IMG/VR virus record: IMGVR_UViG_3300031603_000004
Coordinates: 1 to 54,848 of that record
Reading direction: 5' to 3' (one strand)
Origin: a virus
Taxonomy: Duplodnaviria > Caudoviricetes
Length of the DNA: 54,848 nucleotides
Every line of letters begins with the position of its first letter. The first letter of the stretch is position 1. A program made the translations under genes and the position numbers. Below, in pieces: positions 2,588 through 45,542 of the stretch. The notes beneath the pieces are model-generated. The model was not told the DNA's origin and made no database searches. It worked only from the letters and a program-made list of their open reading frames with translations.

Positions 2588-3311
2588 TAATTTCCTCTTG
2601 CTTTTTTTCTAGTTCATGGGTCGCCCATTCCATAATCCCATCATGTTGTATTTTTGACTTAGTAAATAAACTGATAGTAGGATTTAACTCTGATCCATCT
2701 GTGTTATAGAATTGTCCATATTCAATCCTATCTTCTAAGTAACTTTTCAAAAACTTAAAACTAATCTCTAATTTCTTTAGTCCTGCATCTCCGTGCTGCT
2801 TATAATACTGCTCAAGATTTTTTCTATCTCCTTTTGATAAAGAATAATTAGCATTGTTAATCCATCCGGATTGAACATTACCTTTTATATCCACATCTAT
2901 ATTCTTACATAAATCCCTATATGATTTCTGGAAGTTTTTAATTACTTCATAAAATTCATTTGCATTAACAGGTAACTTCTTTGGTGCTTGCTGCTCGTTC
3001 TTTCCTTTGATTGGTCTATATTGTAATAATTGATAAGTGTTATGCTTTTTATTATCAACTACTTTTGTAGTCCAATTTAATAGACGATGTTCTTTCAACT
3101 TCCTTTTTAATAAATCAATGTTTCTAACACTACATCCCATATCTTTTGCAAGAGTTTCTCTTGCAGGGAATGCTGTAACTTTATCTCTTGCATAACTTAA
3201 TAGAATTAAGTATAGTCTCATTGACGAATTATCAATGAGACTATTTATTAGTAAAGATCTTTCAATTGGAACTTTCCAATCTATCTTTTTATATTTAAAA
3301 ACATCTGGCAT
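2556..3311 (-). CDS. Helix-turn-helix DNA-binding protein (replication-initiator-like N-terminus)
   Basis: AFPARETLAKDMGCSVRNI...LKEHRLL HTH_36-like pattern. Confidence 0.6.
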   Translation of the reverse strand: MPDVFKYKKIDWKVPIERSLLINSLIDNSSMRLYLILLSYARDKVTAFPARETLAKDMGCSVRNIDLLKRKLKEHRLLNWTTKVVDNKKHNTYQLLQYRPIKGKNEQQAPKKLPVNANEFYEVIKNFQKSYRDLCKNIDVDIKGNVQSGWINNANYSLSKGDRKNLEQYYKQHGDAGLKKLEISFKFLKSYLEDRIEYGQFYNTDGSELNPTISLFTKSKIQHDGIMEWATHELEKKQEEINARDLQQDKK

Positions 3312-3509
3312 TTAGTCTGATCCTATTAGTAATACTCCACCTAGTATTCCAGCAAAAGTTCCAATAAGAAGATACCAATTTTCAGCAAGAAATTGTCTTT
3401 GTAACTCTTTCATTTGAACCATAATATCCCATCCTAATACAATCATCAATATAAGCTGAATTACTCCTAGTACTAGAATAAATACTCCACCTGCTCTTGC
3501 TAATCTCAT
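3312..3509 (-). CDS. Small membrane protein
   Basis: Two hydrophobic segments. Confidence 0.6.
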   Translation of the reverse strand: MRLARAGGVFILVLGVIQLILMIVLGWDIMVQMKELQRQFLAENWYLLIGTFAGILGGVLLIGSD

Positions 3510-4987
3510 ACTGCTACCTTCTTCTTTTTCTTGTCTTGAACATCAAATAGTTCCTGATCACTTGTGTAATAATATCCTTGATATGAATTCTTATATCTAT
3601 CATTAATACTATATAACATTTCTCCAAGATCTTTAGCTGCATCACCTTTAACATTACCTAATTCATAAATAAATACAGTTAAATCTTCTGCAGGGATGTT
3701 CGTATCAGTAATGAAGGTTGATAAATTTAGTGCAGGAAGCTTTACTCCATTTTCACCATCCCAGTTATCAACTTCTTTAATTGAGTGAGCCACAGACAGC
3801 AGAAGATACAGCATAGCTCCTTTTTTCTCCGATAATTTCTTTATTTTATCACGAACAGCAACATAATTAAATAATACATCTTCCGGAAGAACTCTGTTCT
3901 CAGCGAAGTAAACATATTTACCAATGATGTCCTGAACAACTTCTATACCATTCTTAATTCCAAACTCACTGATATTATTTATCAATGCTTTGATTTGAAC
4001 ATTAGGATTTTGGTAGAAAGATGCAAAAGTTTCATCAGGAGTAACATTTTTTTCATTCCACATCTGCATAATATCAAAAATCATATTGTTAGCAACTAAA
4101 GTCCATGCTCTTGGAGACATGGTTGAATCGCCCTCTTCATCATCATCGTCATTATTATTCTTTGAGATTAAGAAAGGAGCTTCAACATTTCCTTCTTCCA
4201 TAAACTTATCAAAAATATAGTAACAAAGTATAGATGGAATTCTTGTAGGCAATTCAATATTACCCCACTGAAAAGTTTTGAAAGCAAATGAACTTAACCA
4301 ACTAGGTGCGTTATAACCGATATAAATATTTCTATGCCATCTCTCAGCAGTTGCTGTATCGAAATTATTGACTGCGTTAAAAGAAGAGACATTCTTTTGA
4401 AGCTTTCTATTTCCAGAGCCGATAATGACTGTCCTTTTTGGAAGAGTGTATTTCTCAGACTTACCAGTTTCTTCATTATAATCTGCACTACCACCGATTT
4501 CTCCACTAAGAACTAAGTTCATAACAGCAGCCATACTTTCTGTATCTGCTTTATTGTATTCATCTAAATGTAAAATCCATAATTCATCATTATCAGTTGG
4601 AGGAAGAACTGTAGGCTGTGCTAACCTAACAACAGTTTGTTCTTTTTTATTTTTATGTAAATAAGGAAACCCTTGCAGTTCCTCGATTGGAATCTTCTGT
4701 ATTTCCAACTTATGATAAACGGCATTTTCTTTTTCAGCAATCTGTTTTATAATCATCGATTTGCCAACGCCTGTTTCGCCATAAACAAAAAGAGAGTGTA
4801 ATGTTTCATCAATAAAGATATTATCTTTAGTTAATTTTATAACTCTTCTTACTTCTTTTTTCAAATCTTCATATGTTGAAGGTTCTGTATTTATGGCTTT
4901 TGTAATACCCTTTTTAATACCCTCTATATCAAAATTACTACTTACATTCTTTTGTAGATCAAAGTATAGTTTTGAATACTCTTTCAT
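3506..4987 (-). CDS. MoxR-like AAA+ ATPase
   Basis: Walker A GETGVGKS, Walker B ILHLDEYN, sensor GSGN, SPRAW. Confidence 0.8.
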   Translation of the reverse strand: MKEYSKLYFDLQKNVSSNFDIEGIKKGITKAINTEPSTYEDLKKEVRRVIKLTKDNIFIDETLHSLFVYGETGVGKSMIIKQIAEKENAVYHKLEIQKIPIEELQGFPYLHKNKKEQTVVRLAQPTVLPPTDNDELWILHLDEYNKADTESMAAVMNLVLSGEIGGSADYNEETGKSEKYTLPKRTVIIGSGNRKLQKNVSSFNAVNNFDTATAERWHRNIYIGYNAPSWLSSFAFKTFQWGNIELPTRIPSILCYYIFDKFMEEGNVEAPFLISKNNNDDDDEEGDSTMSPRAWTLVANNMIFDIMQMWNEKNVTPDETFASFYQNPNVQIKALINNISEFGIKNGIEVVQDIIGKYVYFAENRVLPEDVLFNYVAVRDKIKKLSEKKGAMLYLLLSVAHSIKEVDNWDGENGVKLPALNLSTFITDTNIPAEDLTVFIYELGNVKGDAAKDLGEMLYSINDRYKNSYQGYYYTSDQELFDVQDKKKKKVAV

Positions 4988-11320: not shown

Positions 11321-12176
11321 ACAATTTATAATAGAGTCTCAAAATATTTTTGATAAATATGATTATTCTGAAGTTGATTACATTAACAACAAAACAAAGG
11401 TAGAAATAGTATGTAAAAAACATGGAAGTTTCTGGAAAACTCCTAATCATCACTTGAAAGGGCAAGGGTGTCCTGAATGTTCTAGTACTAAAAAGACACT
11501 CGGAAGATTTATATCAGAATCTAATAAAGTTCATAATTATAAATATATATACTCTAAAAGTATATATAAAAATGCTTTATCTAAAATAGAAATAATATGT
11601 CCAAAACACGGTAGCTTTTTTCAAAGAACAGAAGCTCATTTGAGAGGGCAAGGATGTTCAAAATGTAATTTTGAATCTCAAAACAAAACTACAAAAGAAT
11701 TTATAGTAGATGCGATTAAGGTTCACGGAAATAAATATGATTATTCAAAAGTTAACTATAAGAATAATTATACAAAAGTGAAAATAGTATGTAAAAAGCA
11801 TGGTTGCTTTTTACAGATTTCTAATAGCCATCTAAATGGAAGAGGTTGTCCAAATTGTAATACATCTAAAGGAGAGTTGAAAATTAAAAAATATTTAGAT
11901 AGTTATAACATAAACTATATTCAGCAAAAGACATTTAAAGATTGTAAATATAAAAGATTTTTAAAATTTGATTTCTACTTACCTGAAGAGAATGTTTGTA
12001 TTGAGTATGATGGGATACAACATTTTCAACCTATAAAATATTTTGGTGGAGAAAAGGCTTTTAATAAAACAAAAATTAGAGATAATATTAAAAATAACTA
12101 TTGTAATGAGAAGAATATACAATTAATAAGAATAAAATATAATCAAAGAAAAATAGGAGATAAGATATGGCTTTAG
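11301..12176 (+). CDS. Homing endonuclease (same family as 5276-6196)
   Basis: Three CxxHG/GCxxC repeats; FDFYLP...IEYDGIQH. Confidence 0.85.
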   Translation: MSKKTTKQFIIESQNIFDKYDYSEVDYINNKTKVEIVCKKHGSFWKTPNHHLKGQGCPECSSTKKTLGRFISESNKVHNYKYIYSKSIYKNALSKIEIICPKHGSFFQRTEAHLRGQGCSKCNFESQNKTTKEFIVDAIKVHGNKYDYSKVNYKNNYTKVKIVCKKHGCFLQISNSHLNGRGCPNCNTSKGELKIKKYLDSYNINYIQQKTFKDCKYKRFLKFDFYLPEENVCIEYDGIQHFQPIKYFGGEKAFNKTKIRDNIKNNYCNEKNIQLIRIKYNQRKIGDKIWL

Positions 12177-20648: not shown

Positions 20649-20673
20649 ATGAAATATTTCGCCTTTACTTTTT

Positions 20674-20748
20674 TGACTCCCCTCGGAGTCGAACCGAGAC
20701 ATAAATTGCGTCTAAAACAACCTCCTCTGCCAATTGGGATAGGGAGCC
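20674..20748 (-). tRNA. tRNA-Leu(TAG), short variable loop
   Basis: Cloverleaf, anticodon loop TTTAGAC. Confidence 0.85.
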
Positions 20749-20754
20749 ATGAAA

Positions 20755-20845: not shown

Positions 20846-20971
20846 AAAAATATGAATATCCAAACCATATGATATTCAGTCAATGTTTTCGCATTGAATT
20901 TTTCGTACTAAACCATCTACTCTACTAAAGCTTGATTATTAGGTACTTTCCTGGGTCTTAGATTCCGGAAG

Positions 20972-21055
20972 CGGGCAGAAGAGGTGTCGATCCCCTACGC
21001 TTTCACGCATACGAATTTTCAAGATTCGGTGTCAGTAGCCGCTGACATTCTGCCC
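20972..21055 (-). tRNA. tRNA-Ser(TGA), possible 8/4 fold
   Basis: GGGCAGAA/TTCTGCCC, loop CTTGAAA, long variable arm, G73. Confidence 0.8.
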
Positions 21056-41531: not shown

Positions 41532-41602
41532 AAGCCGTACTGGGAATCGAACCCAGATTAAAATGATTAGAAGTCATCCATCCTAAATCCATAGGTACAG
41601 CC
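41532..41602 (-). tRNA. tRNA-Arg(TCT), no 8-9 connector
   Basis: GGCTGTA/TACGGCT, CCTA-TGGATT-TAGG, loop CTTCTAA. Confidence 0.8.
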
Positions 41603-42672: not shown

Positions 42673-42720
42673 TTCCTTATAATTAATTATATCAAATTAT
42701 TCTTTTTTTGTCAAGTAAAA

Positions 42721-42950
42721 AATCATTTCTATAGCCAAGATTCTGTAATTATCCTATCATCTATCTCAGTATTTCTACTGGCCATTTCTGGCTGCCACAA
42801 CCCGATCATAATTAGAGAACTCACATCCTAGATCTGTTTGTGTTGCACCCTCTGAAGTCCTAACGATTATTCTAATCTCCTTCATTTGGTTCTGGTGTCT
42901 TGAGCTTCCTCTATATTTTTTATACTATACAGCGATAGGTCAGAATGATT
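42721..42950 (-). ncRNA. rnpB: Minimal RNase P RNA (about 230 nt)
   Basis: P1 AATCATTCT/AGAAATGATT; P2 CCTATCG/TGATAGG; CR-I GAGGAAGCTCAAGAC; CR-V ACAGAATCTTGGCT; P4 AGC(U)CAAGA/UCUUGGCU with bulged U; CR-IV AGATAGATGAT. Confidence 0.85.
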
Positions 42951-42953
42951 TAG

Positions 42954-43026
42954 TGAACTTATTCGGAACCGAACCGAAAACATTCTGCTTAAGAGGCAGA
43001 CGCTCTTCCTGTTGAGCTATAAGTCC
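42954..43026 (-). tRNA. tRNA-Lys(CTT)
   Basis: Cloverleaf, loop CTCTTAA. Confidence 0.9.
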
Positions 43027-43107: not shown

Positions 43108-43202
43108 TTGTTTGGGAATATTTAAGGTCTATTCCCAAGACCGAAAAAAACTATTTTTTTTTGTGAAGTAGTGTAGTTTTTCAAAAGATTCTACTTCTTA
43201 GG

Positions 43203-43272
43203 GTCAGGAGGCAAGAGTCGAACTTGCGAAGTTTTGCTTATGAGACAAAATTGAATACCGATTCTCCCCTGT
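43203..43272 (-). tRNA. tRNA-Met/Ile2(CAT), compact fold
   Basis: 1-nt connector, GAAT-CGGT-ATTC D-arm, 6-bp anticodon stem, loop CTCATAA, 1:72 mismatch. Confidence 0.7.
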
Positions 43273-43274
43273 CG

Positions 43275-43895
43275 TTATTTGTTAATTACTCTACCTTTTC
43301 TCCAATTTTCGGAGATTTCGGTATCTTTAAGAACTTTCATATTATTAACACCATCAGTTATCCACATAGTTCCAAATTGTGAATTACCTGAGCCTTTTTG
43401 TTTTACAGAATTAGCTGCTCCAATTTTTTTCTTGCTTTCTTTCGTGTGTTTTTTTCCTTTGAATGTTCCTTCGTTATTCTCATAATATAACTTCAATCCA
43501 TTAGAAACTTTTTTACAATACCATTCTCTATATTCTTCATCTTCTTTTATTTTATTATGAACTATATGACATTGACCTGCTATGTTATTTAACTCATTTG
43601 AGTTAATATAATAAAAACCTCCTCCATATCCTCCAATGGTTAAATTATATGTATCTAATCTTGATACAAAAGCTTCGTTGACAATTTCTTCTTCTTTTTC
43701 AAGCATATCTTCTAAAGAAGCACAATAAAAAAGAACTTCTCTTGAAAATATTTCTTTTCCATATTTTTTAATGACTCTCCGAAGATATGTTCCAGAACCA
43801 ATATAACCATCTTCAATTTTTTCTGTAATATGACAACCTATGTATATCATATTATTTATTTTGTTCGTCGTCTTGTAAATTAAATAATGTTTCAT
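43275..43895 (-). CDS. GIY-YIG (Seg-like) homing endonuclease inside tRNA array
   Basis: LIYKTTNKINNMIYIGCH, YIGSG, YNL..GG, NUMOD3 KHTKESKKKI. Confidence 0.9.
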   Translation of the reverse strand: MKHYLIYKTTNKINNMIYIGCHITEKIEDGYIGSGTYLRRVIKKYGKEIFSREVLFYCASLEDMLEKEEEIVNEAFVSRLDTYNLTIGGYGGGFYYINSNELNNIAGQCHIVHNKIKEDEEYREWYCKKVSNGLKLYYENNEGTFKGKKHTKESKKKIGAANSVKQKGSGNSQFGTMWITDGVNNMKVLKDTEISENWRKGRVINK

Positions 43896-44328: not shown

Positions 44329-44397
44329 TAATCCTAACGGGATTCGAACCCATGTCTCCGGTTTTTGCCGAAATGCTAACCACTGCACTATAGGATA
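44329..44397 (-). tRNA. tRNA-like, undetermined (anticodon loop CAAAAA)
   Basis: Acceptor, D (AGTGGTTA) and T (TTCGAAT) arms intact; 6-nt loop without U33. Confidence 0.6.
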
Positions 44398-45470: not shown

Positions 45471-45542
45471 AGCCTCTTGAAGGAATCAAACCTTCTCTCT
45501 CAGTTTAACAAACTGACGCGCTTGTCATTAAGTTTAAGAGGC
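45471..45542 (-). tRNA. tRNA-Asn(GTT), divergent second copy
   Basis: GCCTCTT/AAGAGGC, TCAGT-TTGTTAA-ACTGA; D-loop lacks GG. Confidence 0.7.

Follow-up and report, generated by a model that had tools for sequence, protein, structure and literature searches.

The locus and its tRNA array

The window, by which we mean the whole 54,848-base stretch that was analyzed, is an IMG/VR virus record estimated to be ~23% complete, with a G+C content of ~31%. ARAGORN places 23 tRNA genes in it, all on the minus strand, and Rfam recognizes 21 tRNA regions at the gathering score. Two minus-strand tRNAs are found by Rfam but not by ARAGORN (41532-41602, 30.3 bits; 45471-45542, 42 bits), four are predicted by ARAGORN but not at the Rfam gathering score (20673-20749, 20971-21055, 35837-35909, and 43201-43272), and one ARAGORN tRNA of undetermined identity (44329-44397, minus strand) has an anticodon of two bases. 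CCA is not encoded at the 3' flanks of tRNA-Lys and tRNA-Phe, the two genes inspected. Around the array lie genes for a CCA-adding-family enzyme and for RtcB and Rnl2 ligases (Table 1), which look like a phage module for tRNA maturation and repair. The RtcB gene may be split or interrupted, as its profile is covered only in part. An open reading frame (ORF) of 206 amino acids within the array (43275-43895, minus strand) has, by eye, an N-terminal motif like that of GIY-YIG homing endonucleases; it has no Pfam match at E<=1e-3, and homologs with 29-45% identity occur in at least 10 other loci of the RNA family described below. A 493-amino-acid protein (25690-27171, minus strand) carries DUF2828 (E 7e-32) and DUF7788 (E 7e-55). 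The only phage-protein match of the window phage is to a neck protein, distantly similar to those of PA5oct-like and Vibrio jumbo phages.

The element studied here lies in a 280-nt gap between tRNA-Lys(CUU) and a small ORF (42672-42394, minus strand). A sequence-only reading of the window had proposed a minimal RNase P RNA within the tRNA array at 42721-42950 (~230 nt), without naming a strand. The helix map refines this to 42951..42720 on the minus strand (232 nt), with every part that was claimed, namely, P1, P2, P3, P4 with its bulged U, CR-I, CR-IV, and CR-V, in place. All 12 helices of the window copy are perfectly paired. P4 consists of 3 plus 5 bp flanking the bulged U42903; five pairs differ from the Rfam class-A consensus, all five are still standard pairs, and the bulged U occupies the same place, which bears out the compensatory P4 changes noticed earlier. 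Two hairpins make up a 25-nt insert ahead of CR-IV, and the P3 loop is long. The second insert hairpin, with a GAAA tetraloop, recurs in a subset of relatives with compensatory changes; based on its position and loop type, we take it to be the counterpart of P18 in type-A RNAs. Only some family members, the window copy among them, have P18. CR-IV of the window departs from the family majority at one position (AGAUAGAUG versus AGAUAAAUG), a variant that is also found in some relatives. In the hairpin that occupies the site of the specificity domain (S-domain), the internal-loop bases (GGAG; CGUU..A) are conserved and near-invariant, and the stems covary in the family.

Table 1. Features of the window, with the parts of the putative mini RNase P RNA
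Feature	Position	Strand	Remarks
T4 Rnl2-type RNA ligase	36441..37403	-	PF09414 4.8e-14, PF18043 1e-11
sigma-70-type promoter, 12/12	-35 42714-42709, -10 42691-42686	-	serves ORF 42672-42394
U6 run	42722-42717	-	followed by the sigma-70-type promoter; marks 3' limit of the RNA gene
Putative mini RNase P RNA gene	42720..42951	-	232 nt by outer P1 pairs; covariance model R1 match 42724-42947; nhmmer; helix map
P1 5' strand	42944..42951	-	8/8 pairs with 42720-42727; covaries in family
P2 5' strand	42934..42939	-	6/6 pairs with 42753-42758; double changes at 6/6 pairs in family
P3 hairpin	42911..42932	-	5/5 bp; 12-nt A/U-rich loop, shorter in most relatives
CR-I (GAGGAA...) and P4 5' strand	42897..42911	-	P4 42906-42904 and 42902-42898, bulged U42903 between
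Remnant hairpin replacing S-domain	42854..42883 (30 nt)	-	outer stem 42883-42880/42857-42854 (4/4), inner 42877-42873/42869-42865 (5/5)
P5 3' strand	42849-42847	-	3/3 pairs with 42896-42894
J5/15 GCAA	42846-42843	-	next to P5 3' strand
P15-P16-P17 arm	42796..42842	-	full arm of the RNA
P15	42842-42840/42798-42796	-	3/3 paired
P16	42834-42831/42807-42804	-	4/4 paired
P17	42830-42827/42816-42813	-	4/4 paired
L15 3' side CGGGUU	42804-42799	-	GGU motif within
Extra hairpin A	42781..42792	-	4 bp, GAAA loop; common to a family subset
P18-like hairpin	42767..42780	-	5/5 bp, GAAA tetraloop, abuts CR-IV; covaries among members having one
CR-IV to P2 3' strand	CR-IV 42767-42758, P2 3' strand 42758-42753	-	helix map
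CR-V (ACAGAA...) and P4 3' strand	42731..42746	-	P4 42740-42736 and 42735-42733
tRNA-Lys(CUU)	42953..43026	-	directly upstream of the RNA; 1 base before P1
RtcB RNA ligase	48660..49448	-	PF01139 2.1e-38, profile positions 154-425 only
CCA-adding enzyme / poly(A) polymerase family nucleotidyltransferase	52292..53050	-	PF01743 2.7e-31, PF12627 8.1e-13

Taken alone, the window is not recognized as encoding an RNase P RNA. The Rfam comparison, which took in all 4227 families, identified no RNase P RNA anywhere in the window at gathering thresholds and none in the segment 42600-43000 at lax filters and E<=10, and searches of the window with the RF00010 and RF00011 models found nothing. The sequence-only reading had named the lack of a model match to the catalytic domain as a sign against it, and taken literally this check went against its proposal; we set the outcome aside because the family-level evidence presented below overrides it. 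Single-sequence folding was uninformative and was rejected as evidence for the element: a P1-like terminal helix closes, and stability is ordinary, with a z score of the minimum free energy of -1.29 on the minus strand (19 of 200 shuffles as stable) and -0.16 on the plus strand.

A family of related viral RNAs

In a sensitive blastn search of GenBank phages, the center of the element (bases 103-159 of the 280-nt query) proved to share 83% identity over 57 nt with Microbacterium phage A3Wally. The A3Wally match is on the tRNA strand, where a gap of 216 nt without annotation separates two tRNA-Pro genes, and the same RNA occurs in three more Microbacterium phage records at 91-92% identity. A 16-mer scan of viral contigs was discarded, as it returned mostly chance matches, with CR-I-like and CR-V-like motifs together in 2 of 120 loci. 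A pattern that fixed GAGGAA, the context of the bulged U, GCAA, and ACAGAA at the spacing of the mini RNA, and placed no constraint on six of the eight pairs of P4, matched 115 stretches in IMG/VR, for a total of 116 candidates including A3Wally. A perfect P4 of 5 plus 3 bp around the bulged U is present in 101 of the 116, with many different pair types.

From 56 viral sequences, with the window excluded and flanks trimmed, we built a covariance model (R1) of 187 positions and 34 bp. Nine of the 15 candidates with imperfect P4 were run against R1; the eight with at least two P4 mismatches did not match (8/8) and were dismissed as chance matches, whereas the one with a single P4 mismatch (L161) is a clear family member at 114 bits. 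A second pattern, allowing a longer gap between P15 and CR-IV, found 50 loci, 36 of them new, and all 47 non-window loci that were run against R1 matched it. A third, in which CR-I and CR-V were not required, found 10 loci (its gap minimum was too high), and the eight new ones all match R1; among the loci found in this way, GAGGAA is present in 5/5 assessable distinct sequences and ACAGAA in 5/6. By hand registration, three of the third-pattern loci (L400, L403, and L398) have a perfect P4, including U-A where the first pattern fixed G-C, and a P4 variant of 4 bp in a shifted register occurs in L397, which is identical to L401. Another pair of identical sequences, L399 (1820-2022) and L402 (1968-2170), carries ACAAAA instead of ACAGAA, shows no obvious register for a canonical P4, and scores 57 bits with R1; either degeneration of the copy or a different architecture could account for this. 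The discovery patterns demanded CR-I, GCAA, and CR-V, and alignment rows were preselected for perfect P4, so the invariance of these motifs and the 100% pairing of P4 in the alignment are in part by construction, and the unbiased P4 figure is 101/116.

The family comprises more than 130 diverse viral sequences, many on contigs of 100-500 kb, and its hosts, where known, are bacterial (Microbacterium). The 84 unique full-length members have a median length of 200 nt (range, 184-253 nt). A same-strand tRNA lies within 10 nt in 29/84, within 100 nt in 47/84, and within 500 nt in 55/84, and 99.9% of the tRNAs in family loci are on the strand of the element. At one locus (L183), a second, partial R1 match (3409-3532, minus strand, 50 bits, model 16-141) adjoins the full-length match at 3210-3401, perhaps as the result of a partial duplication in tandem. 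In the published genome of an uncultured phage (642 kb), the record of which is unannotated, 92 nt (LR756502.1, 614713-614804) have 77% identity to locus L158.

The window element is a clear member of this family. An nhmmer profile of 85 unique viral members (window excluded) has its sole significant window match at 42947..42713 on the minus strand (E 4.4e-38). R1 matches over its full length, 1-187, with 116.3 bits and an E value of 1.3e-36, compared to 0.03 and 0.87 for the next window matches. R1 scores for the contig L110 and for A3Wally are 113 and 87 bits, and the 116 bits of the window are mid-range for full-length matches of the family (47-170 bits).

Covariation was tested in two ways, with the hand-derived RNase P-type structure on a plain MAFFT alignment of 57 members and on a model-fitted alignment of 87 rows including the window, the latter having been fitted to the structure of the model. 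Mean column identity in the family is 44-46%. Paired cells amount to 89.9% in the MAFFT alignment (62.9% shuffled) and 94.0% in the model-fitted alignment (62.7% shuffled), falling to 32-45% and 31-44%, respectively, when partners are slid by 1-3 columns. Covariation scores are 0.68 (0.19 shuffled) and 0.74 (0.18 shuffled), double changes occur at 38/43 and 38/42 pairs, and in neither alignment did any of 500 shuffles equal the observed value. Covariation is strong in every family helix, including P15, P16, and P17, and P4 has double changes at five of its eight pairs.

Relation to RNase P RNAs

The family is tied to RNase P through the relatives of the window. The A3Wally gap matches RF00010 from end to end (model 1-367, 72 bits, E 4.3e-22), with most of the S-domain deleted and consensus CR-I and CR-V intact. 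Alignment of L158 to Rfam places P1, P2, P3, CR-I, P5, GCAA, P15-17, GGGUA, CR-IV, and CR-V, and sets 140 S-domain consensus positions opposite an unaligned insert of 40 nt; A3Wally is similar. Scores of relatives against RF00010 are 72, 56, and 43 bits (overall range, 32-72), and none reaches the gathering score of 100. Among 12 sampled family loci, six match models of the RNase P clan (RF00010 or RF00373) with E values of 1e-14 to 2e-5, and six have no Rfam match at E<=1e-3, one of these being cut by the contig end. Conversely, when R1 was searched against four bacterial genomes, the best match fell inside canonical rnpB in two (E 0.01 and 0.16); another genome had a match outside rnpB, and one had none. 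As these matches are weak and two of the four lie in rnpB, the reciprocal link is weak.

Since the window element belongs to the viral family and the family leads to Rfam RNase P models, we take the RNA to be an RNase P RNA homolog. This chain, together with covariation that includes P4, sustains the earlier proposal of a phage-borne miniature without most of the S-domain, and we regard the identification of the element as a phage-encoded, S-domain-reduced RNase P RNA homolog as strongly supported by the sequence comparisons. Its description as consisting of the catalytic domain only holds insofar as most of the S-domain is gone, but it does not account for the conserved, covarying hairpin (42883-42854) at the S-domain site.

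The closest known counterpart is bacterial class A (RF00010), to which relatives align end to end and with which the order of elements is shared: P1-P2-P3, CR-I/P4, P5, GCAA, P15-P16-P17 with GGU, P18 with a GNRA loop, CR-IV/P2, CR-V/P4, and P1. The phage RNAs are ~185-250 nt in length, whereas class A RNAs are about 350-400 nt; they lack P7-P14 and CR-II/CR-III, in place of which there is one short hairpin, they are encoded by viruses inside tRNA arrays, and the window copy is undetected by RF00010. Archaeal type T RNAs (Pyrobaculum / Thermoproteaceae) are cellular, whereas the phage RNAs are bacterial type-A-like, with the L15 GGU and P18, and the Rfam search reported type T (RF02357) neither for the window nor as the best clan member for its relatives. 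The loss of the S-domain in phages is a reduction independent of that in archaeal type T. Some yeast mitochondrial RNase P RNAs, in A/U-rich genomes, are reduced to little beyond P1, P4, and CR-I/CR-V. These are organellar, far more reduced than the phage RNA, and dependent on dedicated proteins.

RNase P RNA is regarded as a ribozyme common to all cells. In full-text literature searches, with coverage largely of papers outside subscription journals and of main texts, no description of an RNase P RNA encoded by a phage turned up. In its accessible sections, the P finder paper (PMC7191817) reports the minimal T-type only in archaea, describes natural minimal RNase P RNA forms for one archaeal family only, and does not mention phage, virus, or viral. 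The available portions of PMC11143913, PMC8172020, and PMC6582537 contain nothing on phage-encoded RNase P RNA, and in the searchable part of the huge-phage paper (PMC7162821) the term "RNase P" occurs zero times. Other RNAs do adjoin viral tRNA genes, according to the parts available of reports on theta/HDV-like ribozymes (bioRxiv 10.1101/2023.06.13.544163) and on GOLLD and ROOL (PMC12286853), and GOLLD has been placed within a tRNA cluster in the accessible text of PMC6582537. The folds of these RNAs are unrelated to that of the mini RNase P RNA, and none is an RNase P homolog.

Reduced forms are also known from CPR bacteria, for which the portions available of PMC8172020 describe sub-threshold Rfam scores, the absence of P12, P13, P14, and P18, and a need for manual refolding. 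Unlike the phage RNAs, these are the sole cellular rnpB, are less reduced, and lie outside tRNA arrays. In a 596-Gb genome collection scanned with the first pattern, 26 of the matches listed (121) pass the P4 test, and all 26 match R1. Among those 26 listed, 14 score at least 88 bits and mostly flank tRNA arrays on MAG contigs, and 12 score 35-72 bits and mostly have no tRNAs nearby, CPR lineages being included. Eleven low-scoring loci (L257, L260, L261, L264, L267, L286, L306, L311, L325, L346, and L359; 35-72 bits) combine a perfect P4 with tRNA-less surroundings, and two of these eleven are on CPR MAG contigs (Microgenomates, Shapirobacteria). The low-scoring, tRNA-less MAG elements may be reduced cellular rnpB genes and not phage copies.

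Proposed role and alternative readings

On the observed homology, conserved structure, and genomic context we base the view that the element is probably a gene for a miniaturized bacterial type-A-like RNase P RNA, one that is expressed, finds its protein partner in the host, and is catalytically active on phage pre-tRNAs. The catalytic core appears to be whole (P1-P4 with the bulged U, CR-I/IV/V, J5/15 GCAA, L15 GGU, P15-P17, and P18), and one conserved hairpin would stand in place of the roughly 150-nt specificity domain. The RNA would be cotranscribed with the tRNA array, and the cuts that mature the neighboring tRNAs would also free it. Once folded, it would bind host RnpA and cleave the 5' leaders off pre-tRNAs encoded by the phage itself, so that RNase P capacity would be raised or secured during infection. 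The GGU of L15 binds the 3'-CCA of tRNA, and S-domain elements normally read the tRNA elbow; since the latter are missing here, activity or specificity could be low. A precedent for activity of such a phage RNA is provided by engineered type A RNAs, the catalytic domain of which, by the sections available of PMC5839562, cleaves substrates on its own with reduced efficiency. Those are laboratory truncations, whereas the phage RNA comes from a conserved gene that occurs in nature and carries an additional conserved hairpin.

The sequence-only reading had suggested that the RNA may process odd phage tRNAs with weak D/T elbows, a rationale that the array does not support. The T-loop is canonical (TTCRA) in 18 of the 23 window tRNAs, with variants in Ser, Cys, Lys, Ile-GAT, and His, a crude regex finds the D-loop GG in 23/23, and 21 regions reach the Rfam gathering score. 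Odd elbows are therefore not a general property of the array.

The protein partner is suggested by what the phages do not encode. No RnpA (PF00825) gene was found in the window, a record ~23% complete, so that for this phage the result covers only a part of the genome. Nor was one found in five viral records with exactly one R1 match each, namely, the complete A3Wally genome, two with 98-100% completeness, and two with 73-77%. Because the phages examined encode none, we favor host RnpA as the partner. The same absence would suit an RNA that is not catalytic at all, such as a mimic that acts as a decoy or chaperone by binding host RnpA, or pre-tRNA, and thereby re-routes or throttles host RNase P; such an RNA could keep the RnpA-contacting core (P2-P4, CR-IV/V) and lose the S-domain used for efficient tRNA binding, as is seen here. 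We consider this unlikely, as the elements of chemistry and docking (the P4 bulged U, ACAGAA, J5/15 GCAA, and L15 GGU) are conserved in a family with 44-46% identity, and a decoy would have no need for the CCA-binding GGU. Lack of a PF00825 homolog is also what would be expected of an active ribozyme that has no need of host RnpA, whether it acts on its own or an unrecognized phage protein takes over the substrate binding of the S-domain; the conserved remnant hairpin could be the binding site of such a protein. This is decidedly unlikely in our estimation, given that bacterial RNase P RNAs need protein in vivo and that homing endonucleases are the only neighboring protein genes seen to be conserved in family loci. 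A basic ORF of 92 amino acids just downstream was rejected as the cofactor, having no Pfam match and no homolog in 165 family loci.

Two further readings concern the window copy. It might be a pseudogene now without function, the decaying and hitchhiking remains of a captured rnpB fragment, for which the absence of an Rfam match and the deviant CR-IV position could be cited; the perfect pairing of its 12 helices, its mid-range family score, and a P4 that departs from those of relatives by compensatory pairs only make this very improbable. That the stretch is not an RNA gene, and owes its appearance to chance resemblance or to a short coding region, is effectively refuted. Three small ORFs of 31-36 amino acids do overlap the element, and the folding z score is weak, but models that exclude the window match it with E values of 1e-36 to 1e-38, and covariation is of the RNA type. 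The ORFs were rejected as coding, as indels among relatives fall in helices and loops without preserving a reading frame.

Beyond the active, RnpA-dependent ribozyme that we favor, a broader proposal is possible, which we put forward tentatively and rate at somewhat less than an even chance. The family would represent the first virus-encoded RNase P, an active class made up of the smallest natural bacterial-type ribozymes (~185-250 nt), with a hairpin replacing the whole specificity domain and with excision by tRNA-processing cuts. Together with CCA-adding and ligase enzymes, it would free the tRNA supply of the phage from host RNase P RNA and possibly resist the loss or inhibition of the latter.

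If the viral mini form is widespread, RNase P would join the translation-related functions of large phages, and, if the proposal is true, structural biology would gain a minimal catalytic core of natural origin, along with a wealth of sequences for comparison. It would also raise the question of whether phages with big tRNA arrays have their own RNase P RNA for capacity, timing, host shut-off, or counter-defense. There is, in addition, a blind spot in annotation, because all members fall under Rfam thresholds: the gene in A3Wally is unannotated, and so is the entire 642-kb phage genome that contains a match. Other RNAs were seen at family loci as well. The 111-kb viral contig L110, which also bears a mini RNase P RNA, has a tmRNA gene (11740-12086, plus strand) inside an array of 39 tRNAs, and at L160 (1299-1413) a sub-threshold Rfam match to YrlA, a Y RNA-like family, lies beside tRNAs (37.7 bits, compared to a gathering score of 69).
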